Shown here in pieces: positions 24,904-50,201 of a DNA stretch of 64,000 nt. Numbering within the stretch: the stretch's first letter is position 1; the number at the start of each line of letters is the position of its first letter. Source of the DNA: Patescibacteria group bacterium (GTDB taxonomy: Bacteria > Patescibacteriota > Patescibacteriia > Magasanikbacterales > JBBTQS01); assembly GCA_038065555.1 (NCBI GenBank), contig JBBTQS010000001.1, positions 467,901 through 531,900 on the forward strand, written 5' to 3'. The notes beneath the pieces are model-generated. The model was not told the DNA's origin. It made no database searches and was given only the letters and a program-made list of their open reading frames with translations. The position numbers were made by a program, and so were the translations under genes.

Positions 24904-25686
24904 TTACTTCCCGAGGAACTCCGGCACCGCATAGGCCGGAGCCGCACGGCCGCGGTCGTAGGCATTCACGTCGAGCTTCGAGTCGCCAGCGTAGAACCAC
25001 GTGCTCGGCACGAGGCGACGCTCGTAGCCGGGAACCCTGCACTCGAGGCCGGCCATCCAGAGATATGGATGTTCCTCCGAACCGTCCATGCGCCGAGCGA
25101 CCTCCGGGTGCTGCGCGAGCATCGCGAGGATCTCACGACCAGGCATCGGTCGCTCGTCCGTGAGCACGCTTTCCGGAGACAGCCCGTAGTTGGCAGTGCG
25201 ACTGAACCGCACCCACCGCTGACGCCAACTGGGGTACTCCGTCTTGCCCCGCAGGAAGAAGTGCTCAGCGTCAGTCTTGAACTCCGGCCACCACCAGCTC
25301 TTCTGCTGCTGTCGCGCCACCCACGACCACACGATCTGCTGCTCCTGCTCCAGCGAGCCGAAGCAACGGTCGAGGATCACGACGTCACCAGGGTCGTCGG
25401 TGTAGTCGAGCGGATCGGGCGAACCCTCCCACCAGAACTTCCGGACGTCCACGTTGTTCGCGACGCATTCGGCATCGTAGATCGGAAGGATCTCCGTGTT
25501 GCGCACGTAAATCCCGTGGACGAGGCGGAACTCCGGTTCCTGCTTGAGCCTTGCCACCCACCTGGCGGTCAGGTCGTCGTTGCCGAGGAGTTTCCTCACC
25601 ATCGGTACGTCCATACCAGCACGACCGAGTCGATCGAAGTGCTCGACCATCTGTGTACCGTAGATTTGAGATGCGAGACCAGCCAT
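24904..25686 (-). CDS. Hypothetical Trp-rich protein of 261 aa, in a GC-rich island (about 64% GC)
   Basis: Protein-like composition (…FWWEGSPDPLDYTDDPGDVVILDRCFGSLEQEQQIVWSWVARQQQKSWWWPEFK…). The start is taken at MAGLASQ with an upstream AAGGCAGG. The antisense ORF 24796..25692 is Arg/Leu-rich and rejected. A 10-bp-stem hairpin lies downstream at about 24838-24883. Confidence 0.5.
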   Translation of the reverse strand: MAGLASQIYGTQMVEHFDRLGRAGMDVPMVRKLLGNDDLTARWVARLKQEPEFRLVHGIYVRNTEILPIYDAECVANNVDVRKFWWEGSPDPLDYTDDPGDVVILDRCFGSLEQEQQIVWSWVARQQQKSWWWPEFKTDAEHFFLRGKTEYPSWRQRWVRFSRTANYGLSPESVLTDERPMPGREILAMLAQHPEVARRMDGSEEHPYLWMAGLECRVPGYERRLVPSTWFYAGDSKLDVNAYDRGRAAPAYAVPEFLGK

Positions 25687-25866
25687 TTCTGACCTGCCTT
25701 TTTGCTTGCCGCTGACCCGCCAGATGCCACGCCGAGATGGCGCACCCTGACTAGCCTGTGTTAAGAACGGCGATATTAGGCCAATAATTAGCCAAATACC
25801 GCCAGGCCCAACTGACATGAGGTACGGGATAATATAGCTGATTCTGGCGTTTTTGTCAACCCCCTG

Positions 25867-25895
25867 TTGACAGTTCCACCCCCAGGTGCTATAGT
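25867..25895 (+). promoter_or_regulatory. Sigma-70 promoter for the DEAD-box helicase: TTGACA, 17-nt spacer, TATAGT. A GTCAAC/GTTGAC palindrome overlaps the -35, and a ~110-nt 5' UTR follows.
   Basis: Perfect -35 and near-consensus -10 read directly. The palindrome TTGTCAACcccctGTTGACA spans 25853-25872. Confidence 0.6.
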
Positions 25896-26006
25896 ATGCA
25901 CCTAAGTCTGGTCCGAATACGGGCCGCCGACTCGAAAACCCATCGATGCGTCCGTAGTTGCTATGTGGCCATGTAGGTAAGTTCGGGTCACTAGCAATTT
26001 TTTTGT

Positions 26007-27449
26007 ATGTCAGAAATGACACCAGGAGCAGAGGGTTTTGAATCCTTGGGTATTGATGCGCACATTCTTGAGCGCCTTACCAAACTCAAGTACACCACAC
26101 CAACGCCAATTCAGGCTGCTGCAATCCCCGTCGCCCTCACAGGCACAGACGTTGTCGGTATTGCACAAACAGGTACAGGCAAGACCCTCGCCTTTGGTGT
26201 TCCAATGTTGCAAACACTCGCAAAGTCCGAGAAAGGCCAAGGCCTCATTCTCGTACCAACACGCGAACTTGCACTGCAAGTTGAAGAAACCATGATCAAG
26301 ATCGGTTCCCATTTTGGGCTTGTCACTGCGGTACTGATCGGTGGTGCTTCTATGCAAATGCAGATTCGCAACTTGCGCCGCAATCCGCACGTGATCATCG
26401 CGACCCCAGGTCGCCTTGCAGATCACTTGCAGCAGCGCACGTGCTCATTGCAAGATATCGAAATCGTCGTTCTCGACGAAGCCGATCGCATGTTTGATAT
26501 TGGGTTCGCTCCACAAATCAAGAAAATCATGGCGCAGGTGCCGACAGAACGTCAGACGTTCCTCTTCTCCGCAACCATGCCACCAGCTATTGCTGCCATT
26601 GCTGCAGCGTATATGCGCTCCCCGAAACGTATTGAAGTAGCACCAGCTGGTACCAGTTCTTCGCAAGTAACACAGTCTCTCTACGTGGTGTCCAAAGACC
26701 ACAAGACGTCCCTCCTCGATCACCTTCTCCGCAAGCACGAGGGCACGGTGCTCGTCTTCTCTCGCACCAAACACGGCGCTCGCAAGATCGCCATGGCAAT
26801 CCGTGCGATGGGTCACACTTCTGTAGAAATTCACTCCAATCGTTCACTTGCGCAGCGCAAAGAAGCGCTTGCAGGATTCAAATCCGGTAAGTATCGCATC
26901 CTTGTCGCAACCGACATCGCCGCTCGCGGTATTGACGTAACAGGAATCACCCTCGTGGTGAACTTCGACCTCCCAGATAATAGCGAGGACTACGTACACC
27001 GCATCGGTCGAACCGGTCGCGCAGGCATGTCTGGTCTTGCAATCTCATTTGCACAGCCAGATCAGCGCAATGATGTTCGCGACATTGAACGCCTTATTCG
27101 TAAGTCGATCCATGTTGAAGAACTTCCAGACAACTTGCCCGCTCCTATTCGTCTCCCTGCAGAACCTCGCGCCGAATTCTCACGCCATGAGCGTGGTGGA
27201 TCTGGCGGCGGTTACGGCGGCGGACGCTCGGGTTCTGGTGGTCGCGGCGGTTCACGCGGTGGCTACGGTGGCGGCAACGGCGGTGGCGAACGAGAATATC
27301 GTCGCCCTACCAGTGGCAGCACCAGCCGCGCTCGCTCCAATAGCTACGGTTCGCAAGGCGGATTCGGTAGCAGCCGTGGCGGTGGCGCTGGATTTGGCGG
27401 CGGTTCTCGTCGTCCAAAGGAAGCACCGAAGTTCACGCGTCACTTCTAA
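26007..27449 (+). CDS. DEAD-box ATP-dependent RNA helicase with a Gly/Arg-rich (RGG-type) C-terminal tail
   Basis: Q-motif region, AQTGTGKT, DEAD, SAT and HRIGRTGRAG. The C-terminal ~90 aa are GGYGGGRSGSGGRGGSRGGYGGGNGG... Confidence 0.95.
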   Translation: MSEMTPGAEGFESLGIDAHILERLTKLKYTTPTPIQAAAIPVALTGTDVVGIAQTGTGKTLAFGVPMLQTLAKSEKGQGLILVPTRELALQVEETMIKIGSHFGLVTAVLIGGASMQMQIRNLRRNPHVIIATPGRLADHLQQRTCSLQDIEIVVLDEADRMFDIGFAPQIKKIMAQVPTERQTFLFSATMPPAIAAIAAAYMRSPKRIEVAPAGTSSSQVTQSLYVVSKDHKTSLLDHLLRKHEGTVLVFSRTKHGARKIAMAIRAMGHTSVEIHSNRSLAQRKEALAGFKSGKYRILVATDIAARGIDVTGITLVVNFDLPDNSEDYVHRIGRTGRAGMSGLAISFAQPDQRNDVRDIERLIRKSIHVEELPDNLPAPIRLPAEPRAEFSRHERGGSGGGYGGGRSGSGGRGGSRGGYGGGNGGGEREYRRPTSGSTSRARSNSYGSQGGFGSSRGGGAGFGGGSRRPKEAPKFTRHF

Positions 27450-27463
27450 AGTGCGCTAGCACA

Positions 27464-27540
27464 AACACCCCCAATTTATTCTTTCCAAGTCCTCCCCGTA
27501 AACTGAGGTCCGGGCTTGGAAAGAATAAATTGGGGGTGTT
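27464..27540. repeat. Long hairpin element, copy 1: a 26-bp perfect stem flanking the conserved 25-nt core TCCTCCCCGTAAACTGAGGTCCGGG, followed by TTTTTATT. It probably also serves as the bidirectional terminator for the helicase and corA.
   Basis: Arms AACACCCCCAATTTATTCTTTCCAAG / CTTGGAAAGAATAAATTGGGGGTGTT are exact reverse complements. The same core recurs at 38287 and, inverted, at 39163. Confidence 0.8.
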
Positions 27541-27554
27541 TTTATTACTGCACG

Positions 27555-28475
27555 TTAGAGCCAACGTTTGCGCGTAAAGATTGCGAGGAGGAAGATGGTG
27601 CTCACGAATGTGATCGCGATAATGAACGTGAAAGCCTGTGGATGTGATGCAAATGGTAGCGCGACGTTCATGCCGAAGAGACTGGTGACAAATGTTGGCA
27701 CCATGATGAGAATCGTGAGCGCAGTGAGCAACTTGATCACGCGATTCAATGAGTTGGTCATGATCGTTGAATACGCTTCGCGGATGTTGCGCATGTTCTG
27801 CACGTCGGCGTTGGCGTTCTCGATAATCTGACCAGCGCTCAACTCCAAGTCCTCAACAAGATCCTGGTCCTGTTCGTAGAGCGGAACATACTTGCCAGAG
27901 AGCAGTGCGTTGAGCATCGCACGACCTGGGACAAGTGCCGCAACGAAGTCGATGAGCACGCGCTCGAATGTCACGAACTGGATAATATCTCGGTCAGAGA
28001 CTGCGTGCAGATCAACACTCACAGAGCGAACCTTGCGACTAATCGATGTCAGGAATCCTGAGTAGCGCGCGAGCATTTGATTGAACAACTGCAATATGAA
28101 ATTCACCTTTTGTGTTGTAATGAGACTTGAAGCATTTGTCTGAAATGCCGTGAGCATCGGGATAGGTCGTGGTGCAATCGTGATCACGCCTTCAGCTGTG
28201 TGCACAATCAGAAGTGGCATTGTTGAGATGTGCTCCCCGTCTTGTACCGGCACACGCATGAAGAGGTAGATGTTGCCATCCTCTACTTCCAGACGCGGAA
28301 CTTCGTATGGATCGAGCGCGTCACGCAAATGACCGAGCTCGAGTTTGTGTTTTGCAACGAGCATTTCCAGCTCGTTCTCTGTAGGAGTCTCTGCGTACAA
28401 CCACGCACCAGCCTTCCAACTCGTGAGTGTACGCAAATCAGTATCCTTGATGGATTTGTAGAAGTATTTGATCAT
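27555..28475 (-). CDS. corA: CorA-family magnesium/cobalt transporter
   Basis: Two C-terminal TM helices with the GMN signature (LFGMNV). 306 aa. Confidence 0.85.
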   Translation of the reverse strand: MIKYFYKSIKDTDLRTLTSWKAGAWLYAETPTENELEMLVAKHKLELGHLRDALDPYEVPRLEVEDGNIYLFMRVPVQDGEHISTMPLLIVHTAEGVITIAPRPIPMLTAFQTNASSLITTQKVNFILQLFNQMLARYSGFLTSISRKVRSVSVDLHAVSDRDIIQFVTFERVLIDFVAALVPGRAMLNALLSGKYVPLYEQDQDLVEDLELSAGQIIENANADVQNMRNIREAYSTIMTNSLNRVIKLLTALTILIMVPTFVTSLFGMNVALPFASHPQAFTFIIAITFVSTIFLLAIFTRKRWL

Positions 28476-38215: not shown

Positions 38216-38261
38216 TTACGAGGTAAGTGAACCACGGGGGTGGGAACAATGCAACACAGCG

Positions 38262-38336
38262 AAGCCAAGCAAAGCTCTTTTCCCAGTCCTCCCCGTAAAC
38301 TGAGGTCCGGGCTGGGAAAAGAGCTTTGCTTGGCTT
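38262..38336. repeat. Long hairpin element, copy 2: a 25-bp perfect stem (AAGCCAAGCAAAGCTCTTTTCCCAG / CTGGGAAAAGAGCTTTGCTTGGCTT) around the identical 25-nt core.
   Basis: It sits in the divergent intergenic region between epmA and the 38443 gene, which is not a terminator position. Confidence 0.8.
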
Positions 38337-38442
38337 TACCGTATCGTCACGTTCACACTCCATAGACACTCACCGCGCACTTTGATATAGTCCTCCCTCG
38401 CACCCATGCGAGCAACCACTAGAGAAAGGAAGCATCGAACTC

Positions 38443-39018: not shown

Positions 39019-39132
39019 CGCGCGTCACGCGCTCTCAGGTCTCAACATGACGCCATCGGCTCCTCACGGTCCCGATGGCGTTCGTCTTTTCTGAAGGGTG
39101 TTTTGCTTTGCCGACGCACAACTAGTGATGTA

Positions 39133-39216
39133 GCCAAACCCCTCCAGTACTTCGTGAGCAAACCGGACCTCAGTTAACGGGGAGGATTTGTGAATGAAGT
39201 GCTGGAGGGGTTTGGC
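39133..39216. repeat. Long hairpin element, copy 3: 30-bp arms with 5 mismatches (3 of them G·U on the plus strand) around the core in inverted orientation, CCGGACCTCAGTTAACGGGGAGGA.
   Basis: It lies between two independent terminators of the convergent genes. The core differs from copies 1 and 2 by one A-to-T change. Confidence 0.75.
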
Positions 39217-39234
39217 GGCATCAGTGTTCGTGAA

Positions 39235-41855: not shown

Positions 41856-41999
41856 ACCCAGTCCCCCTGCGCATCAAGCGCATGTGCACGTGACTAACGA
41901 ATGATTCGTCAGTGCGAGATTCTTACCACGCGTGAGAAGGGACAGTCAACGCCAGCGTACCAATTCCAATCGCACTTGCAGTATTCAAAAATAGTTTTG

Positions 42000-42073
42000 T
42001 CGGGCTAACACGACTTGAACGTGCGACCTCATGCACCCCATGCATGCGCTCTAGCCAACTGAGCTATAGCCCG
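42000..42073 (-). tRNA. tRNA-Pro (anticodon GGG)
   Basis: Reverse strand CGGGCTA-TA-GCTC-AGTTGGCTA-GAGC-G-CATGC-ATGGGGT-GCATG-AGGTC-GCACG-TTCAAGT-CGTGT-TAGCCCG-A gives a 74-nt cloverleaf with U33, G37 and the GGG anticodon. No CCA is encoded. Confidence 0.8.
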
Positions 42074-42152
42074 TAGTAAGCGGAAAGAGGGTCCAGTCAC
42101 CAAAGGTGACGTCGACCCGAACACCAACTGTACCCACGTATCAGTTTGTACC

Positions 42153-42308
42153 GGTTTGCGGTATTTGTTTGCGAGGGGCCAACGGAGGCCGACCGGTCAG
42201 CTGTATCCGCCGCAAGGCGATACGCGTCGTCCGGTCGGCCGAGTTAGAGACGCGGTTCCACGGTTAGTGGAACCGACGTTGTACCCTCGCAAACAAATAC
42301 CGCAAACC
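42153..42308. repeat. 156-bp structured element bounded by perfect 25-bp terminal inverted repeats (GGTTTGCGGTATTTGTTTGCGAGGG), with internal nested hairpins.
   Basis: Read directly. The inner 106 nt contain GGCCGACCGG…CCGGTCGGCC and GGTTCCAC…GTGGAACC palindromes. It lies upstream of tRNA-Pro on the minus strand. Confidence 0.6.
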
Positions 42309-42451
42309 ACCATGCGATGTACCCCCGATGTATCAGGTGGGTAGCCCGTGTGTTTCGCCACGGCGATCACGATCCAGACATGAACCCGGCGGAGATAATT
42401 GTAGAGAATATCGCACAGCAGTAGCGGCTCCACCAGTATACGGATCAGTCA

Positions 42452-42482
42452 CATACAAATCAAGAACGCGCAGGAGACCTGC
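42452..42482 (-). terminator. Terminator hairpin downstream of ndk: a 14-bp perfect stem CAAGAACGCGCAGG/CCTGCGCGTTCTTG with a 3-nt loop.
   Basis: Read directly, about 20 nt after the ndk stop. On the minus strand it is followed by a T-rich ATTTGTATGT. Confidence 0.5.
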
Positions 42483-42503
42483 GCGTTCTTGGGGTGAGAG
42501 AGC

Positions 42504-42986
42504 CTAGGCTCGCTCGTCTTCGATGTATACGTGGAGATAGTCGCTCTTGTCGTAGTCGTAGATCTCTTCTTCGCGGAAGAATCGTGGCACTTCTGCCTGT
42601 GCCGCTTCGACTGAATCAGAGGTGTGGATCACGTTGCATGCTACGCTCATCGCATAGTCGCCGCGGATCGAACCTGCTTCTGCTTCGCGAGCCTTGGTAA
42701 CGCCGGTGATGAGACGCACAGCGTTGACCACGCCAAGTCCTTCCCAGCACATCACCACAACTGGCGCGCTCATCATGAAACGCTCAACACCAGGGTAGAA
42801 TGATTTGCTCGCAATGTGTGCGTAGTGCTCGCGCAATACTGCTTCATCGAGGCGCATCATTTTCGTTCCTACCAACTTGAGGCCTTTGTTCTCAAATCGC
42901 GAAGTGATCTGACCTAGAAGTCCACGCTGAATAGCGTCTGGCTTCACGATCACAAGTGTTTTTTCCTTGAGTCCTGAGAATTCCAT
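42504..42986 (-). CDS. ndk: Nucleoside diphosphate kinase
   Basis: …TLVIVKPDAIQRGLLGQITSRFENKGLKLVGTKMM…NVIHTSDS… (NDK active-site His region). The start is taken at MEFSGLKEK. Confidence 0.9.
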   Translation of the reverse strand: MEFSGLKEKTLVIVKPDAIQRGLLGQITSRFENKGLKLVGTKMMRLDEAVLREHYAHIASKSFYPGVERFMMSAPVVVMCWEGLGVVNAVRLITGVTKAREAEAGSIRGDYAMSVACNVIHTSDSVEAAQAEVPRFFREEEIYDYDKSDYLHVYIEDERA

Positions 42987-43133: not shown

Positions 43134-44180
43134 TCAGATCATGATGCGACGGTAGCAGTCGTACACTGCCCGGAAGTACTTCAACCTCGCGTTGATGTCC
43201 GCCCCCCACCCTGGAACATGCGGGAGACTCGCAACGCAGTCGACGTGAACCGTTGGACCAGTGTCCTTGCGCGGCTCGATGTCACTGATGAGCGGTTCCC
43301 CGTCCGGACCATGCACCGTCAGCATCCTGGCTTCTCGCTCCATGCCCTTGATGATGCGCTGCCAGTCGAAGATCCGATCCTCGACGAAGCAGACGATCTG
43401 GAGAATAGGCGTACTGCTGCTCGCCAGTTGCAGCTGTCCCTCGTGAAGCGCTCGGCGAACTTCGATCTCGTTGCCCAGTCCGCTCTTGAATGCGAGCTCC
43501 ATGAATGCCAGCGGCGCGTCAGGGATCGCAGACAGGTACGCTGCCTCGAAATCCTCACGCTCAGGCTGACTGCCTGCGTAGAGTCGGTAGAGCGTGTCGC
43601 TGTTGGCGATCATCCCTTCCTTCCCCGAACTGTGGTTCGTCGCCAGTGCTCGCATCGCATCACGGAGTGCTGCCCATCCGCCATTGCCCCAGAACGACTT
43701 GTTCGAGAACCAGAGCGGCGCGCGTTCCCACGGAGGCGGTGCTTCTGCGATCACATGCCACACGATCTTGGCGTGGAGTGCTCGCAGCAACGGCAAAATG
43801 CGCAGTGCGATCACCGACCCCATGGAATGCCCATGGACGACTGCCCACTTGAACCGGTTCGGATGTGCGTCGAGGTACGCACTGATCATGTGCGCGACTT
43901 CCACAGCCTGCTCGTTGAGCGTCTGGCGTGTGAGACCTGATGCTGACTCACCAGCTGCGGTCTGCCGTCGTGAGATGTAGACGATGGTTGTACCAGCGCC
44001 CACATCGTCTTGCCGCTCCTGCATGGATTGCTCGGATTCGTTGAACCCCGAGATCATGAAGCTCACCGCCTCACTGCCCAGAGATTCCCACTCACCGTTG
44101 CGAACCACCACCACACGGTCAAGGCGCTCGTGTTTGTACTTGAGCTCGACCGTGTGTCGCCTTTTATCACGCTTGTTCAT
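43134..44180 (-). CDS. Alpha/beta-fold hydrolase (lipase/esterase-type GxSxG), GC-rich
   Basis: VVHGHSMGSVIAL is the nucleophile elbow. The start is taken at MNKRDKRRH with GGGAG 7 nt upstream, and a minus-strand TTGACA-17-TATGGT promoter lies at about 44250-44279. The track ORF extends to 44222. Confidence 0.65.
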   Translation of the reverse strand: MNKRDKRRHTVELKYKHERLDRVVVVRNGEWESLGSEAVSFMISGFNESEQSMQERQDDVGAGTTIVYISRRQTAAGESASGLTRQTLNEQAVEVAHMISAYLDAHPNRFKWAVVHGHSMGSVIALRILPLLRALHAKIVWHVIAEAPPPWERAPLWFSNKSFWGNGGWAALRDAMRALATNHSSGKEGMIANSDTLYRLYAGSQPEREDFEAAYLSAIPDAPLAFMELAFKSGLGNEIEVRRALHEGQLQLASSSTPILQIVCFVEDRIFDWQRIIKGMEREARMLTVHGPDGEPLISDIEPRKDTGPTVHVDCVASLPHVPGWGADINARLKYFRAVYDCYRRIMI

Positions 44181-44439
44181 CGTATACTCCCTGCGTCTGC
44201 GTTGCAGACATCCAACAGCCATAGCTGCGCCTCGAATTGAGGACGCGATACCATAGCACCAAGAGTCGATTTTGTCAATGTTTGAAGCAAAATCGACACG
44301 TACTTGCCATTTGGAACAAACATGGTAGGCTACAAATAGCTACCTGTTGTGTGCTCCCCTGCCTGAATGGCGCCGTTACCACGGCAGCTTCCCCATCTCC
44401 CTAGGTGCGAGATACCACTCCCCCAGGGGCACACAACTC

Positions 44440-46614: not shown

Positions 46615-47793
46615 ATGAACACCTTTTTTACACAGGTCAAAGTGGACAAGTCTGGCCGAGCACGCCTGGGCATCATTCACACAGATCACGGCGATATCGA
46701 AACGCCGGTTTTCATGCCCGTTGGAACACAGGCTACAGTGAAGGCGCTAGGCAATGACGATCTACTCGCTGCAGATGCTTCGATTATTCTTGGTAACACG
46801 TATCACTTGCATCTGCGTCCAGGAGAAGACCGCATCGCAGCACTTGGAGGACTCCACGCATTCATGAATTGGCAACGACCGATGCTCACTGACTCCGGTG
46901 GATTCCAGGTGTTGTCCCTCGGCGCACAGATGGCACGCAACGGTGGTGAGGATGCGAAGAATCAAATGGCGCGTATCGACGAGGACGGTGTGACATTCCG
47001 CTCACACATCGACGGATCAACACACCGATTCACCCCAGAATCCTCTATTGGTGTTCAAAAAAAACTCGGCGCAGATATTATCATGGCATTTGACGAATGC
47101 ACGCCCGATGACGCTGATCATGACTATGCGTCACGCGCCATTGGCCGTACACATCGATGGGCTGAGGAATCTGTAGCAGCATTTCAATCGATCCCGCAGG
47201 TGCATGCGCATCGACAATTTTTGTTCGGTATTATTCAGGGAGCCAACCATGCAGACTTGCGTGTGGAGTCTGCGAAGTTCATCACCGCACTCCCCTTCGA
47301 CGGCATCGCCATTGGCGGCGAATCAATTGGATACAACATGGCAGCAACGCGTGAGACACTTGATCTCCTCGCACAATATCTCCCAGAGGACAAACCACGC
47401 TACACCATGGGCGTTGGTTCCTCACCACAAGATCTCTTCGATGTTGTCGAGCGCGGTGTAGATATGTTCGACTGTGTTGCGCCAACACGACTCGCTCGCA
47501 ACGGTGCTCTCTATTCGCGCGCAGCAGGAGCCGAAAAAAAGTTTCGCATCAATATCACTAACGCGCCATTTGCCGAGGACTCGCGCCCAATCGAGGAAGG
47601 CTGCACATGCTACACCTGCCAGAATCACACACGTGCGTACCTCCACCACCTCTTTGCAGCAGACGAATTGCTCGCCATGCGTCTGGCATCAATTCACAAT
47701 GTCTTCTTCATGCTCGAGTTGATGAGAAATATCCGTGCGGCGATTGCACGAGACGAATTCCTATCATTCAAAGAGAGCTGGCAAAAATCATAG
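46615..47793 (+). CDS. tgt: Queuine tRNA-ribosyltransferase
   Basis: …GRARLGIIHTDHGDIETPVFMPVGTQATVK…LAMRLASIHN… and a C-terminal Zn-site CxCxxC…H region (CTCYTCQNHTRAYLHH). Confidence 0.93.
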   Translation: MNTFFTQVKVDKSGRARLGIIHTDHGDIETPVFMPVGTQATVKALGNDDLLAADASIILGNTYHLHLRPGEDRIAALGGLHAFMNWQRPMLTDSGGFQVLSLGAQMARNGGEDAKNQMARIDEDGVTFRSHIDGSTHRFTPESSIGVQKKLGADIIMAFDECTPDDADHDYASRAIGRTHRWAEESVAAFQSIPQVHAHRQFLFGIIQGANHADLRVESAKFITALPFDGIAIGGESIGYNMAATRETLDLLAQYLPEDKPRYTMGVGSSPQDLFDVVERGVDMFDCVAPTRLARNGALYSRAAGAEKKFRINITNAPFAEDSRPIEEGCTCYTCQNHTRAYLHHLFAADELLAMRLASIHNVFFMLELMRNIRAAIARDEFLSFKESWQKS

Positions 47794-47970
47794 GCACTAA
47801 ATCCTCGGAGCACAACGTCCCATTCCCTCACCAGGAATGGGCGTCTCGTTCTCGGGCAGCCAGATAACGCTTCACGCCTTGCGGCGCGTACTGCTGGCTG
47901 GCTACCCTCCGAAAGTCTCCGAGAATTCAGTGCCTATGATTTTTGCCAGCTGCCACTGATTGATAGGTAC

Positions 47971-47999
47971 TTGACACGTGCAATCACCCCTGGTAGAGT
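47971..47999 (+). promoter_or_regulatory. Sigma-70-like promoter for the 48022 gene: TTGACA, 17-nt spacer, TAGAGT.
   Basis: Read directly. It is followed by RBS AAGGAGGGAAG 6 nt before the ATG. Confidence 0.55.
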
Positions 48000-48021
48000 C
48001 TTCGCACAAGGAGGGAAGCCG

Positions 48022-48366
48022 ATGCCAACATCTCGTAGCATCGCGCTTGCTTGTGCAGTACTCTTGCTTGCATTAGACGTGGCTGCGCTGAGCCTGAGCT
48101 CCCTAGAGGGCCTGGTACTCGGTCGCAGACAAGCGCCACAACGGTTCTTCGGTACAGCGTCTCCAGACGTGCCGCTGCCTGTTGTGACGGTCGAGGCAAG
48201 TAGCCCATTTATCCTCGAACACGCTGTTGAAGTCTCCAGAGAGCGGGACGCAACGACAACGGCGAGCTCGAGGTGGATGCGAGAATGCACAGGCAAACGA
48301 GCCCGGTTTCGGGGTCCTCCCTTGCGATGTCCTGAACGACGTCGCGCGAGGGATCCCCCGAGGTAG
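48022..48366 (+). CDS. Small secreted protein of 115 aa with a signal peptide and an Arg-rich C-terminus. Very GC-rich.
   Basis: The strong RBS, own promoter and own terminator (hairpin plus GTTTTTCTTATTTT at about 48372-48420) support a real gene. The signal peptide is MPTSRSIALACAVLLLALDVAALS. No family match. Confidence 0.5.
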   Translation: MPTSRSIALACAVLLLALDVAALSLSSLEGLVLGRRQAPQRFFGTASPDVPLPVVTVEASSPFILEHAVEVSRERDATTTASSRWMRECTGKRARFRGPPLRCPERRRARDPPR

Positions 48367-48433
48367 GGTGTTCGGCGGTTCACACATGTGAGCCGCCGTT
48401 TTTCTTATTTTAGACAAAATTGGGGTGTTAATA

Positions 48434-48462
48434 TTGACAAAACGCATTTTTTGTGCTATATT
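48434..48462 (+). promoter_or_regulatory. Sigma-70-like promoter for the 48508 gene: TTGACA, 17-nt spacer, TATATT.
   Basis: Consensus hexamers read directly. RBS GAGGTG lies 8 nt before the ATG. Confidence 0.6.
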
Positions 48463-48507
48463 CTTGGGTCGTGTAATTTCGCACGGCCAGTTCTAGAGGT
48501 GTTTCCC

Positions 48508-49101
48508 ATGCGTCTTTCCAAGATGATTCTCGCGCTTGTCCTCATGTTCGTTGGCCTCGTGACTGACACGGCGGCGGCGGATCGGGGTCGGGGTGGATAC
48601 CGTGTCCGGACCCATTCGCATCGGACGTACCATCGTCCGGTACGGGTGCGACGTGTGCGCAGCCACAACTATATCCGCGCCCCGCGCGTGGTGTTCGTGG
48701 CTCCGGCGCCGGTCGTGTTCGTACGCCAGCGCCCGCAGTACGTGTATGAGGCTCCGGCCGAGCAGGTCGCGCAGCCTAGCAACTCCCCGCTCACGCCGGA
48801 GCAGTACGCGCCGGTGTGCGGCGCCGACGGGATGACGTACTTCAACAAGTACGTCGCTCTCAAGTGGACTGCGAGCGTGCGCCACGAAGGTGAGTGCACT
48901 GTGGGCGAGGCGCAAGCGGGTTACTACTCGCTGCGCAGCACCAAGAGCATTCGCTGGATGTTCGCGCAGGGGGCGAAGCGCACGTACGGGACAACCGGCG
49001 TATGCTTCTCGACCGCAGACTGTCTCGACACGGAGACGTGTCAGTCGGTGCCTGACGAGGCCGACCAGTACTGCAAGCACAGCAAGAACCAAAACGAGTA
49101 G
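48508..49101 (+). CDS. Secreted protein of 197 aa with a signal peptide, an Arg/His/Val-rich low-complexity region and a Kazal-like domain. About 66% GC.
   Basis: Signal peptide MRLSKMILALVLMFVGLVTDTAAA. The stretch PVCGADGMTYFNKYVALKWTASVRHEGEC resembles the Kazal protease-inhibitor core (C-G-x-D-G-x-T-Y-x-N). There are further cysteines C-terminally. A terminator follows at about 49115-49160. Confidence 0.55.
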   Translation: MRLSKMILALVLMFVGLVTDTAAADRGRGGYRVRTHSHRTYHRPVRVRRVRSHNYIRAPRVVFVAPAPVVFVRQRPQYVYEAPAEQVAQPSNSPLTPEQYAPVCGADGMTYFNKYVALKWTASVRHEGECTVGEAQAGYYSLRSTKSIRWMFAQGAKRTYGTTGVCFSTADCLDTETCQSVPDEADQYCKHSKNQNE

Positions 49102-49169
49102 TCGATCGCGCAACGCGACGACACTCGGCGGCGACCTATTTCCTGATGGAGATATGGTCGCCGTTTGTT

Positions 49170-50201
49170 TTAGAGAATCAACATCGCGTCGCCGAAGCTA
49201 TAAAAAAAGTATTCGCGTGCAATGGCATCGTCATACGCAGCACGAATGTGCTCGCGACCGGCGAAGGCGCTCACGAGTACCAGGAGTGTGGACTTGGGCA
49301 AATGAAAATTAGTGATCATGGCGTTGATCACGCGAAACGTAAACCCAGGCTTGATAAAACAATTCACGTCCCCTACGTACGAGCAGAGTTCGCCACCGTG
49401 CATTGCAGCCACACCCTCGAGTGTGCGGACAGTGGTGGTGCCTACAGCAACGACGCGCTTGCCTGCGCGGTGAGCTGCCGCAATTGCTTCAACGGTTGCG
49501 GTCGTGACTTCTACCCACTCGCTGTGCATTTCGTGCTCCTCGATGGTATCTGTCTTCATGGGTTGGAACGTGCCGATGCCGACGTGGAGTGTTACTTCGG
49601 CGAACTGTACTCCGCGCTCGCGCAGTGTCGCAATTAATTCCTCCGTGAAATGAAATCCTGCAGTAGGGGCAGCAACCGATCCTTCGGCGGTTGCATACAC
49701 TGTCTGGTACTGCGCAATTTCGGTTGGCTCAGCACCAACGTAGGGTGGCACCGGAATGTGACCATAGCGATTGCTCAACTCGCGCACTGCGGCTGGGTCG
49801 AGCTCGAATCGAACATACACCCGGCCGTCTTCCCCCTTATCAACAATCACACAGGAGAAATCCTCTGCAAATTGCACAATGTCTCCCACGTGCGCCTTGC
49901 GACCTGGACGCATGAGGGTTTGCCACACACCATCAGCGGTGTGGCGCAACAAAAAAACTTCGATCTCAGCGCCGCTCGGAAGATGCCCGAAGAGTCGAGC
50001 CTTGAACACCTTGGTGTTGTTCCACACCAGCAGGTCTCCAGGTTCTAGATATTCGACGATGTCGCGAAACACGCGATGCTCGCGCTCCCCTGTCTCACGG
50101 TTGAGCACTAAAAGTTGGCACGCGTCGCGTGGCTCCTTGAGCTGCTGCCCGATGCGTGATTCTGGGAGTTCGTAATCGTATTCACCTACCGACGTTGCCA
50201 T
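49170..50201 (-). CDS. queA: S-adenosylmethionine:tRNA ribosyltransferase-isomerase
   Basis: MATSVGEYDYELPESRIGQQLKEPRDACQLLVL… and the length (343 aa) are typical of QueA. Confidence 0.9.
   Translation of the reverse strand: MATSVGEYDYELPESRIGQQLKEPRDACQLLVLNRETGEREHRVFRDIVEYLEPGDLLVWNNTKVFKARLFGHLPSGAEIEVFLLRHTADGVWQTLMRPGRKAHVGDIVQFAEDFSCVIVDKGEDGRVYVRFELDPAAVRELSNRYGHIPVPPYVGAEPTEIAQYQTVYATAEGSVAAPTAGFHFTEELIATLRERGVQFAEVTLHVGIGTFQPMKTDTIEEHEMHSEWVEVTTATVEAIAAAHRAGKRVVAVGTTTVRTLEGVAAMHGGELCSYVGDVNCFIKPGFTFRVINAMITNFHLPKSTLLVLVSAFAGREHIRAAYDDAIAREYFFYSFGDAMLIL

Follow-up and report, generated by a model that had tools for sequence, protein, structure and literature searches.

Two GC-rich genes for small, apparently exported proteins lie between the queuosine genes tgt and queA of an uncultured Hainich groundwater bacterium (a Patescibacteria/CPR MAG). 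The locus raises the question of how these genes came to be there and what their products might do. The initial annotation regarded positions 47794-49169 as two independently promoted genes inserted there, probably by horizontal acquisition, the larger one encoding a possible secreted protease inhibitor. We examined this region within the window, which is the whole 64,000-nt stretch of DNA analyzed, and compared it with related loci (given L numbers below). The assignment of the flanks as queuosine genes was borne out by strong Pfam matches, and a protein identical to the tgt product carries the name Tgt, Patescibacteria group bacterium, in the protein database. The flanking genes and the two units between them are as follows.

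46615..47793, + strand: tgt (tRNA-guanine transglycosylase), left flank; Pfam TGT, 472.7 bits
47971..47999, + strand: ORF1 promoter, TTGACA-17-TAGAGT with TG before the -10 (extended -10); 10/12 matches
48008-48014, + strand: ORF1 ribosome binding site AAGGAGG, 7 nt upstream of the ATG at 48022
48022..48366, + strand: ORF1, 114 aa, an orphan and probably a small exported protein (sequence features, positional homologs)
48373..48408, + strand: ORF1 intrinsic terminator, 11-bp stem with 8 GC pairs and a U-run (stem plus TTTTTCTT at 48373-48398)
48434..48462, + strand: ORF2 promoter, TTGACA-17-TATATT with TG before the -10; 11/12 matches
48496-48501, + strand: ORF2 ribosome binding site GAGGTG, 6 nt upstream of the ATG at 48508
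48508..49101, + strand: ORF2, whole coding sequence, 197 aa (strain comparison, ortholog)
49127..49172, + strand: ORF2 terminator, 17-bp stem (49127-49165) with a U-rich tail over the queA stop codon
49170..50201, - strand: queA, right flank; Pfam Queuosine_synth, 419.6 bits

The tgt and queA genes are convergent, and queA is also convergent with ORF2. The spacer holds two monocistronic units, ORF1 and ORF2, each with its own strong sigma-70-type promoter, Shine-Dalgarno site, signal-peptide-like N-terminus and terminator formed by a hairpin and U-run. The two-gene layout is confirmed, but it leaves out the opening 177 nt of the interval, which contain no gene and no promoter. The overall yield of our promoter scan was not above chance (4 sites versus 2.4 ± 1.8 in shuffles), and the ORF1 and ORF2 promoters are its top-scoring sites, correctly placed and conserved in position in sister species. 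The counterparts of the ORF1 promoter, read by eye, are TTGACA-17-TACTCT in L088 and TTGACA-(17-18)-TACTGT in L090. The ORF2 promoter is orthologous to TTGACT-17-TATGCT in L088, and both share the spacer sequence TTTTTGTG. The 3' half of the ORF1 terminator stem (GCCGCCG / GTCGCCG) and the T-run are also kept in L088. The ORF2 terminator and a small upstream hairpin lie in a 73-nt stretch (49100-49172) with a folding energy of -39.4 kcal/mol (z -6.2).

Both products are predicted to be exported. This judgment uses sequence heuristics (n-region, h-region and cleavage site), and both N-termini have a basic n-region followed by an 11-residue hydrophobic core (Kyte-Doolittle ~3.1). The signal-like segment of ORF1 reads MPTSRS-IALACAVLLLAL-DVAA|L, with VAA|L as the putative cleavage site, and that of ORF2 reads MRLSK-MILALVLMFVGLV-TDTAAA|D. 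These features agree with the signal peptides proposed in the initial annotation.

The GC content of ORF1 is 60.0% and that of ORF2 is 64.0%, versus 52.6% for the window (sd 2.6% in 600-nt windows). The earlier estimate of 62-66% is thus a little above the ORF1 value. Only one peak in the window exceeds that of ORF2 (63.8%), and the third-position GC (GC3) of ORF2, 0.80, is the highest among the 64 window ORFs (mean 0.56, sd 0.07; z about +3.3), the background being the 64-kb window rather than the whole genome. In ORF1 the GC values are 0.65/0.60/0.55 by codon position, so that the excess GC is spread over all three positions. Atypical composition in the codon-specific sense is therefore found for ORF2 and not for ORF1.

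One explanation for this pattern is a recent horizontal event, in which both genes came together from a GC-rich donor into the gap between tgt and queA. The composition of ORF2 is as expected for such an island, the spacer content differs among relatives, and the closest non-orthologous matches to the Kazal-like domain of ORF2 are large multi-Kazal proteins of other bacteria. However, the GC of ORF1 is not concentrated at third positions, and the spacer lacks any integrase or transposase ORF, att-like direct repeats and tRNA (the window's sole tRNA gene lies at 41999-42073). The distribution of the genes also argues against a recent arrival. ORF1 homologs occupy the same position behind the same promoter in three species, and ORF2 is present in two, with orthologous promoters that in the case of ORF2 include the spacer sequence.

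The relationships among these species are informative. The tgt genes of L088 and L090 are 94.9% identical, which makes these two species sisters, and the window species is 86-87% identical to either; the tgt and queA identities place it as their outgroup. (The closest tgt among 80 loci kept from a scan of a genome collection is 58% identical; the closer relatives came from the protein database.) The tgt-queA spacer holds ORF1, ORF2 and a further gene, ORF3, in L088, ORF1 only in L090, and an ORF3-like gene only in L124. Other genes are found at this site in L091 and L093, and in L123 tgt has no queA neighbor. Since the window species is the outgroup to L088 and L090, ORF2 would predate their split and have been lost in L090, and its absence from both L090 and L124 is best read as loss. 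A recent island is accordingly quite unlikely, and the proposed insertion by horizontal acquisition is not sustained: at the same site, ORF1 has homologs in L088 and L090, and ORF2 has an ortholog in L088. One observation does not fit simple vertical descent, since the GC3 of ORF2 is 0.80 in the window and 0.62 in the L088 ortholog.

The explanation that we favor, to which we assign a probability of about 0.6, is that ORF1 and ORF2 are ancestral, variable cassettes for small exported proteins, and that a structured element (el1, described below) was inserted next to them later. It builds on observed gene anatomy, homology, orthology, presence and absence of genes, and conservation of the el1/el2 structure. 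In this genus-level clade of groundwater Patescibacteria, the tgt-queA spacer would be a variable locus with one to three self-contained mini-operons, each having its own promoter, ribosome binding site and terminator and coding for one small exported protein. Two of these are found in the window species. Both would go back to an ancestor shared by the three sister species, with cassettes lost in relatives.

ORF1 matches only itself among 5.8 billion proteins, and it has no Pfam or NCBIfam match. An orphan of this kind could be an incidental reading frame, in which case the promoter-to-terminator unit (48006-48405) would be a non-coding RNA or leader. Its even GC distribution would be consistent with this possibility, as GC at second positions is about 0.38-0.43 in neighboring genes. 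The few differences between strains ([0,3,3] by codon position; 2 synonymous and 4 nonsynonymous) show no third-position bias, the transcript folds better than shuffles (z -4.5), and an antisense frame of equal length is also open. However, the strong Shine-Dalgarno site at 7 nt and the ATG are kept in three species. The positional homologs in L088 (113 aa) and L090 (82 aa) have diverged to 26-28% identity, yet frames of 114, 113 and 82 codons have stayed open, for which we estimate a chance probability of roughly 4e-5 (using a stop-codon frequency of 0.032 at 60% GC). The hydrophobic N-terminal segment and the C-terminal RxRDP motif are conserved as well. The shared features are I-A-C-x-C and R-x-R-[AI]-R-D-P together with the ribosome binding site and ATG, and the middle has diverged.

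The low strain divergence of the segment that includes ORF1 and el1 was considered as a sign of constraint, and this was rejected. Windows of 200 nt inside housekeeping genes are equally low, which suggests a recombination mosaic, and such a mosaic may also account for the low divergence of ORF1. A minus-strand ORF at 47934-48383 ends in SWQKS* like tgt, and it was likewise rejected as a degraded second tgt: tblastn finds only the last 22 tgt residues copied, and there is no Pfam match. This ORF is a shadow frame that shares third positions with ORF1.

A non-coding unit is an alternative, though an improbable one. The promoter, ribosome binding site, start codon, hydrophobic N-terminus and RxRDP tail of ORF1 recur in two sister species, which indicates that ORF1 is probably translated. 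It would then be a fast-evolving, small exported basic protein whose disordered-looking tail ends in RRRARDPPR.

ORF2 is a real gene, because its differences between strains are biased toward third positions ([5,3,23] by codon position; 19 synonymous and 8 nonsynonymous) and because an ortholog exists. The corresponding synonymous and nonsynonymous counts for the flanking genes are 49/5 for tgt and 26/2 for queA. Strain L007 carries an in-frame 3-nt indel within ORF2. The encoded protein can be divided into four parts.

48508..48579, + strand: signal peptide, residues 1-24, predicted cleavage AAA|D (sequence features)
48580..48777, + strand: Arg/His/Val/Pro-rich basic low-complexity region, residues 25-90 (alignment gap in the L088 ortholog)
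48790..48900, + strand: Kazal-like domain, residues 95-131 (profile and homolog matches)
48997..49074, + strand: C-terminal 4-Cys module with C166, C172, C178 and C189 (invariant columns versus the L088 ortholog)

Residues 26-76 of the basic region have a pI of 12.0, with 14 R+K and no D/E. The 4-Cys module follows the pattern VCF-x3-DCL-x2-E-x-C...YC and matches no Pfam or NCBIfam family. The L088 ortholog is 34% identical, versus 87% for the housekeeping neighbors, and keeps PE[QE]YAPVCGxDG...HxGEC...VCF...DCL...C...YC. In place of the signal peptide it has a lipobox, LIGC, and the basic stretch is absent. ORF2 appears to be a small, fast-diverging and surface-tethered protein whose predicted anchor has switched between lipobox and basic stretch.

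The Kazal-like core PVCGADGMTYFN, C-terminal to the Arg/His-rich stretch as first described, is supported by several searches. The Pfam match to Kazal_1 is borderline (21.0 bits, cutoff 21), and that to Kazal_2 (19.3 bits) falls below its cutoff of 22.8; the L088 ortholog lies below both cutoffs (16.1 and 15.1 bits). A phmmer search gave 1798 matches at E≤1e-3, all on residues ~95-132, and the bacterial protein P0002 matches at E 3.6e-9 (5.8 billion sequences). PDB matches include ovomucoid (1.2e-7) and the leech-derived tryptase inhibitor LDTI (1.9e-4). Judged by these matches, the Kazal homology of ORF2 is real, but degenerate.

The closest relatives of the ORF2 domain are bacterial multi-Kazal proteins (P0002, 333 aa, with 57% identity in the Kazal core; P0003, 249 aa; and matches of 400-2500 aa), some of which carry C-x5-C-x5-C spacer modules that resemble the ORF2 tail. 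In these proteins the domain is repeated in long tandem arrays, each repeat having four to six cysteines, whereas ORF2 has one degenerate copy. Like established Kazal inhibitors (PF00050/PF07648; MEROPS I1; for example the ovomucoid third domain and the leech-derived tryptase inhibitor), to which it has significant sequence matches, ORF2 is predicted to be exported and has the core [YF]-x-P-V-C-G-x-D-G-x-T-Y-x-N ... H-x-G-x-C with the right spacing. Unlike them, it is a single domain set between a basic low-complexity stretch and a 4-Cys tail, and only two of the six canonical cysteines are present, Cys104 (Cys3) and Cys130 (Cys6). Cys1 and Cys2 are absent, Cys4 is replaced by Tyr and Cys5 by Trp. 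The same two cysteines are kept in the L088 ortholog.

In the Kazal fold an alpha-helix packs on a small beta-sheet, and the reactive-site loop Cys2-P2-P1-P1' is pinned by the 2-4 disulfide. The six cysteines of a canonical domain are bonded 1-5/2-4/3-6 (PMC1236909). If ORF2 were a functional inhibitor of this type, then its secretion might serve to block a serine protease, Glu-specific or otherwise, belonging to a host or competitor. The homology itself is consistent with this function. In addition, Thr-Pro-Glu-Gln of ORF2 aligns with Cys-Pro-Lys-Ile of LDTI, which puts Pro-Glu at P2-P1 in the LDTI and ovomucoid alignments, and this pair is kept in both orthologs. Cysteine loss alone does not abolish activity, since a two-disulfide Kazal domain that lacks Cys3 and Cys6 still inhibits (PMC1236909). 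That domain, from the oomycete effector EPI1a, is likewise a reduced-cysteine Kazal in a secreted protein of an organism living on other cells, but it keeps the 1-5 and 2-4 bridges (PMC1236909). ORF2 is the reverse and could form only the 3-6 bridge. Because four of the six defining cysteines are missing, including the Cys2 that pins the reactive-site loop, canonical inhibition is doubtful. The low scores of the L088 ortholog point the same way. In an AlphaFold2 model of ORF2, residues 103-119 have secondary structure compatible with the Kazal fold; with a pLDDT of 42.8 the model is unreliable and too poor to confirm the fold, and it was set aside. The protease inhibitor proposed in the initial annotation is therefore unlikely in its canonical form, and a textbook tight-binding role is the less likely one for ORF2.

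We favor a different role for ORF2. The protein would be exported through Sec and probably retained on the cell surface through the strongly basic stretch near its N-terminus; the L088 ortholog would use a lipoprotein anchor instead. It would display a Kazal-derived domain with a single disulfide, Cys104-Cys130, together with the 4-Cys tail. The most likely function of such a protein may be to bind an extracellular protein partner, which would be a protease or surface protein belonging either to this bacterium or to a host cell.

The segment between tgt and the ORF1 promoter (47794-47970) is a lineage-specific insertion made up of a structured element and a duplicate, in inverted orientation, of the final 55 nt of tgt. 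Its parts overlap.

47739..47810, no strand assigned: left arm of an inverted repeat, 72 nt, 82% complementary; the native tgt 3' end (its final 55 nt, the outer part of the arm) plus 17 nt after the stop
47786..47941, - strand (inferred): el1, a ~156-nt three-way-junction element (folding, homology to 42153-42308)
47917..47988, no strand assigned: right arm of the inverted repeat, overlapping the -35 hexamer of the ORF1 promoter

A long stem closes el1; hairpin A, whose apex is CGCC-GCAA-GGCG, is joined by the linker CGAGnnnGAGACG to hairpin B, and ACGUUGU comes next. The minus strand folds better (-95.8 kcal/mol, z -8.9) than the plus strand (-71.7, z -4.5). The element is homologous to a paralog in the window at 42153-42308 (el2) and to L088:1521-1676. 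Across the aligned copies 97% of cells are paired, versus 30-40% in slid controls, and 29 pairs are changed on both sides, so that covariation supports the structure. In sister species el1 is absent between tgt and the promoter, and TTGACA begins 7-10 nt past the tgt stop in L088, L090 and L124. From 47935 outward, the right arm repeats the final ~55 nt of tgt in inverted and decaying form, and tblastn shows that only tgt residues 371-392 are copied on the minus strand. The left arm is the original, because the tgt C-terminus is homologous to the tgt of relatives. Strain L006 has three non-compensated changes in the outer right arm.

The segment could instead be just a long terminator hairpin of tgt rather than a distinct element. 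It sits immediately behind the tgt stop codon, and on either strand there is a U5 tract past the closing stem. Nevertheless, the same three-way-junction core recurs at 42153-42308, where the stems are quite different, no U-tract is present, and a predicted, conserved promoter for the tRNA-Pro leader lies upstream. Another species has retained that copy with compensatory changes, and no comparable structure follows tgt in the sister species. We therefore regard a simple tgt terminator as very unlikely. As part of the ancestral cassette model, el1 would have landed between the tgt stop and the ORF1 promoter later, in the window lineage only. Its hairpin may then have seeded the inverted duplication of the adjacent 55 nt of tgt by fold-back, and el1, with its U5 tracts on both sides, may now terminate transcription in both directions between tgt and the cassettes.

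No Rfam family matches el1 or el2 at E≤10 in small-range scans of 47700-49250 and 41900-42560, which returned only noise and tRNA-Pro. Large-range Rfam scans missed even this tRNA-Pro (60 bits in the small-range scan) and so were not relied on. No minus-strand promoter was found for el1, and its strand, as indicated by G.U pairs, is antisense to all neighboring genes. Model R1 detected no further copies in 16 related loci, in ~20 kb of extra flanks (mainly of the same genome), or in L123 and L124.

Like MITEs and REP-like palindromes, el1 and el2 are short, non-coding, intergenic, hairpin-forming, present in more than one copy and polymorphic for presence between species. Unlike those repeats, their closing stems share no sequence while the interior is conserved, no direct target duplication was found at el1 or el2, and in el1 the outer stem duplicates the end of the flanking gene in inverted orientation. 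A widespread MITE was also rejected: in a scan of metagenome contigs the el1 stem sequence matched 27 times singly and never as a pair, which agrees with the tens of matches expected by chance from a rough guess of the collection size. The stem-matching contigs had no blastn similarity to the el1 core, and the one match to the core pattern in a viral scan was rejected by the covariance model.

Cultivated Patescibacteria live attached to other microbes and, to our knowledge, few of the surface proteins behind this way of life have been identified. Comparative evidence makes ORF2 a concrete candidate for a host- or protease-facing protein, and we found no literature linking Kazal domains with Patescibacteria. 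ORF2 would extend the range of the Kazal scaffold to a one-disulfide form, and the variable cassette locus might offer a simple marker for strain comparison. The list of non-coding elements that we know of in this phylum is very short, and el1 could join it, subject to confirmation across whole genomes. So far the significance proposed for this locus rests throughout on comparison of sequences.

A broader and more tentative proposal, perhaps correct but well short of even odds, has two linked parts: el1/el2 may exemplify a novel class of Patescibacteria element, either structured RNA or folded single-stranded DNA, and the tgt-queA spacer may be a cassette hot spot. If this is true, then the class would be defined by a ~156-nt three-way junction with a GCAA-capped hairpin, whose long closing helix can grow by inverted copying of its flanks. 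A promoter fixed just past the tgt stop would drive interchangeable, fast-evolving surface proteins for an episymbiotic lifestyle, including the new single-disulfide Kazal derivative.

The window also contains a second, unrelated family of long hairpins (27445-27559, 38237-38361 and 39117-39232), in which the apex is conserved and the stems are variable.

The initial annotation of the tgt–queA spacer described two GC-rich, separately promoted genes for secreted proteins, one Kazal-like, and took their GC content to suggest horizontal acquisition. Every element that it listed (promoters, ribosome binding sites, terminators, GC content and N-termini) is found in the spacer. The observation is therefore confirmed, whereas the interpretation is only partly supported. 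The features are as follows.

Features of the tgt–queA locus
46615-47793, plus strand: tgt (Pfam TGT, 472.7 bits)
47794-49169: whole tgt–queA spacer, the scope of the finding
47971-47999, plus strand: ORF1 promoter, TTGACA-17-TAGAGT (10/12; TG before the -10)
48022-48366, plus strand: ORF1, 114 aa
48434-48462, plus strand: ORF2 promoter, TTGACA-17-TATATT (11/12; TG before the -10)
48508-49101, plus strand: ORF2, 197 aa
49170-50201, minus strand: queA (Pfam Queuosine_synth, 419.6 bits), convergent with tgt

Both genes have the near-consensus sigma-70 promoters claimed for them, and sister species keep these promoters. They are the two best promoter-like sites between 46.5 and 50.5 kb. The scan of this range is overall not above chance (4 sites versus 2.4 ± 1.8), and the weight of the two calls comes from position and conservation in sister species rather than from scan statistics. 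AAGGAGG lies 7 nt upstream of the ORF1 ATG (48022) and GAGGTG 6 nt upstream of the ORF2 ATG (48508). The ORF1 terminator has an 11-bp stem followed by TTTTTCTT, and that of ORF2 has a 17-bp stem and a U-rich tail overlapping the queA stop. The genes are indeed GC-rich (60.0% for ORF1 and 64.0% for ORF2, versus 52.6% for the window), and ORF2 forms the second-highest GC peak across the 64 kb. By sequence heuristics, both proteins are predicted to begin with a signal peptide (basic n-region, hydrophobic core and small-residue cleavage motif).

The suggestion of an episymbiont-type (CPR) organism was a reasonable guess, since the tgt and ORF2 matches point to groundwater Patescibacteria. Contigs recovered from well H41 of the Hainich groundwater (0.1 and 0.2 μm filter fractions), one of them 359,651 bp long, encode an identical ORF2 protein. 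The Tgt protein is identical to an NCBI-named Tgt from a "Patescibacteria group bacterium" MAG, and the nearest named tgt relatives are Candidatus Magasanikbacteria (62–64% identity).

Several results indicate that ORF2 is a genuine, Kazal-derived and probably exported protein. Comparison with strain L007 gives 19 synonymous and 8 non-synonymous codon differences (5, 3 and 23 changes by codon position) and one in-frame 3-nt deletion. The corresponding counts are 49 and 5 for tgt and 26 and 2 for queA, which shows that ORF2 is under purifying selection that is several-fold more relaxed than on its neighbors. An antisense open frame spanning ORF2 (48493-49113, minus strand) was rejected as a shadow ORF because its third codon positions are those of the ORF2 frame and it has no homologs or domains.

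The Kazal-like core held up in homology searches. Kazal_1 scores 21.0 bits (cutoff 21) and Kazal_2 19.3 bits (cutoff 22.8). A word-indexed search matched a 333-aa multi-Kazal protein (E = 3.6e-9), and exhaustive phmmer returned 1798 proteins at E ≤ 1e-3, every match falling on residues ~95–132. Among solved structures, ovomucoid (1.2e-7), agrin and leech-derived tryptase inhibitor (LDTI; 1.9e-4) are matched. Judged by these alignments, the Kazal homology is real; ORF2 descends from Kazal domains and is predicted to work like them.

A canonical Kazal domain has six cysteines joined as disulfides 1-5, 2-4 and 3-6 (PMC1236909). The ORF2 sequence, TPEQYAPVCGADGMTYFNKYVALKWTASVRHEGEC, keeps only Cys3 and Cys6; Cys4 is replaced by Tyr and Cys5 by Trp, and upstream Cys1 and Cys2 are missing. 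An oomycete two-disulfide variant is active without Cys3 and Cys6 (PMC1236909), but these are exactly the pair that ORF2 keeps. A search for a characterized precedent for a Cys3/Cys6-only Kazal domain found none. According to the LDTI alignment, P2–P1 (the reactive-site positions) are Pro-Glu. Measured against the inhibitor scaffold, ORF2 departs from the family definition in two respects, its cysteine pattern and the lack of a pinned reactive loop, and we therefore class it as a Kazal-derived domain rather than a Kazal inhibitor. The Kazal ancestry behind the proposed "secreted protease inhibitor" stands; canonical inhibition is doubtful. The domain is followed by a four-cysteine module, VCFSTADCLDTETC...YC, for which protein-family searches gave no match. 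The AlphaFold model of ORF2 (pLDDT 42.8) is too low in confidence to use.

The content of the spacer varies among relatives.

Spacer content in related loci (tgt identity to the window; TTGACA after the tgt stop)
L088/L089, 87%: three separately promoted genes, one ORF1-like, one ORF2-like and a third for a small membrane protein; L088:7183-7200
L090, 86%: only an ORF1-like gene between tgt and queA; L090:7183-7200
L124, 85%: only a gene resembling the third L088 cassette; L124:2045-2075
L123, 77%: queA not adjoining tgt
L091, 73%: spacer genes unrelated
L093, 69%: spacer genes unrelated; L093:7222-7235

By tgt (94.9%) and queA (93.0%) identity, L088 and L090 are sister species, with the window as outgroup (86–87%). 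Since both the window and L088 have ORF2, its distribution is most simply explained by ancestral presence and loss in L090. Window and L088 share an orthologous ORF2 promoter and leader, down to the promoter spacer TTTTTGTG. These relationships, and the ORF1-like genes of L088 and L090, argue against a recent horizontal acquisition, and the locus is no classical genomic island. The two ORF2 proteins are 34% identical and keep LxPE[QE]YAPVCGxDG, HxGEC and the four tail cysteines. The L088 protein has a lipobox (LIGC) and lacks a basic stretch, whereas the window protein has a predicted cleavable signal peptide followed by a ~65-residue stretch whose core (residues 26–76) has a pI of 12. We infer that each stays attached to the cell surface in its own way.

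The composition of ORF2 does not follow from plain vertical descent. Its GC3 of 0.80 tops the 64 crude ORFs of the window, whose mean is 0.56 (SD 0.07); the L088 ortholog has 0.62. Possibly, ORF2 was replaced xenologously by a GC-richer family member via the conserved flanks. ORF2 is not the sole compositional outlier in the window, as two further hypothetical genes (24904-26022 and 43134-44222, both minus strand) have GC of 0.60–0.62 and GC3 of 0.71–0.75, with no recorded Pfam families.

ORF1 is probably translated, as a small exported basic protein (pI of the mature part 11.4). It might instead not be a protein gene: its GC is near-even across codon positions (0.65/0.60/0.55), its six differences from strain L007 and five from strain L006 lack third-position bias, and its antisense frame is equally open, because both frames share third positions. 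However, the corresponding position in L088 and L090 also carries a promoter of this type (extended -10, TGnTAnnnT), a strong RBS and an ATG, opening frames of 113 and 82 codons, respectively. The N-terminus (I-A-C-x-C-G, hydrophobic, then an AxA-like site) and the C-terminal end (R-x-R-[AI]-R-D-P) also recur, which favors translation. No relatives outside the species were found among 5.8 billion proteins, and protein-family searches gave no domain match. The antisense frame (47934-48383, minus strand) shares third codon positions with ORF1, has no homologs or domains, and was rejected as a shadow ORF. Both cassette genes are ordinary in kind, coding for small, predicted exported proteins of a CPR bacterium. 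They have one unusual feature, the Kazal derivative with its single disulfide and its change of anchor, and ORF2 also has a GC3 that plain vertical descent does not predict.

In L088, L090, L124 and L093, a TTGACA hexamer lies 2–10 nt past the tgt stop irrespective of the gene that follows, so tgt has no terminator of its own in these relatives. This constant position makes the spacer look like a fixed promoter site with interchangeable cassettes downstream. The third cassette type (L088:8230-8512; L124:2045-2320) has a promoter and RBS and encodes a protein of 61–66 aa that starts M(NK)HQ[ST]VW[GW]LF, has a single membrane segment and ends in a basic tail.

Overlooked initially were the 177 nt between the tgt stop and the ORF1 promoter (47794-47970), present only in the window species. 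In sister species the ORF1 promoter directly follows the tgt stop, and this segment is an insertion. It contains most of el1, a ~156-nt structured element with a paralog, el2.

Structured elements
47786-47941, minus strand: el1, beside tgt
42153-42308, plus strand: el2, between ndk and tRNA-Pro, on the strand opposite to el1

A repeat search found a 72-nt inverted repeat (47739-47810 with 47917-47988, 82% complementary). The left arm is the native tgt end, whose translation, ARDEFLSFKESWQKS, is homologous to relatives' C-termini; the right arm is an inverted copy that includes just the last 22 tgt codons. Strain L006 has three uncompensated changes in the outer right arm, indicating that it is decaying. 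A copy of the element would have entered the window lineage behind the tgt stop, where its hairpin would then have caused the neighboring tgt end to be duplicated in inverted orientation by folding back. The el1 core, which lies between the two arms, is far more stable than its shuffles, folding at −95.8 kcal/mol on the minus strand (z −8.9) and −71.7 on the plus strand (z −4.5). On either strand the stem runs into a U5 tract (GATTTTTG in both cases), and el1 may therefore now terminate transcription in both directions, separating tgt from the cassettes.

The two elements agree in architecture and core sequence: both have CGGAGG, a hairpin A with the cap CGCC-GCAA-GGCG, a hairpin B whose loop is GGUnAG, CGAGnnnGAGACG as the linker between the hairpins, and ACGUUGU after hairpin B. 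The closing stem of el2 has 32 bp (94% complementary), and the element folds at −110 kcal/mol (z −11.4). It has an ortholog with compensatory changes in L088 (L088:1521-1676), and L090 lacks it. Across the three copies, 97% of pair cells are paired versus 30–40% with slid partners, and 29 of 61 pairs changed on both sides versus 1–4 in slid controls. On the el1(−)/el2(+) strand, G.U occurs at 12 pair positions versus A.C at 2 (binomial p about 0.01), and all four strain polymorphisms in stems toggle between Watson–Crick and G.U, which suggests that this is the strand that folds. This strand is antisense to the neighboring genes and promoter scans found no promoter for it, which makes a role as folded single-stranded DNA possible.

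Rfam scans gave nothing over ranges of 64 kb and 24 kb, yet a 661-nt scan recovered tRNA-Pro (41999-42073) at 60 bits (cutoff 29); large-range negatives are therefore unreliable. Small-range scans gave no match for either element. Unlike MITEs, the copies vary in their terminal stems and conserve the interior. The elements fit no curated RNA family and no standard mobile-palindrome class. Searches of related loci, ~20 kb of extra sequence (mainly of the same genome), viral contigs and JGI metagenomes gave no further copies. Of all these findings, the structured element is the most novel; so far it has turned up at only two sites within a single small clade.

Between the ndk terminator and el2 lie ~150 noncoding nucleotides (42309-42463, minus strand) that are ~84% identical in L090 and ~75% in L088, the latter alignment also spanning el2. 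The region starts with TTGATT-17-TATACT, a predicted promoter on the minus strand that all three species retain; this suggests that the tRNA-Pro transcript has a long leader (~355 nt in the window, ~125 nt in L090). This leader could hold another RNA; its 42309-42463 region has no Rfam match. A second family of near-perfect long hairpins (27445-27559, 38237-38361 and 39117-39232; −53 to −81 kcal/mol) has a common apex, CCGGACCUCAGUU[UA]ACGGGGAGGA, on quite different stems with near-perfect cores of ~22–30 bp. Two lie between convergent genes and the third between divergent genes, and one adjoins a gene for an RRM_1 RNA-binding protein.
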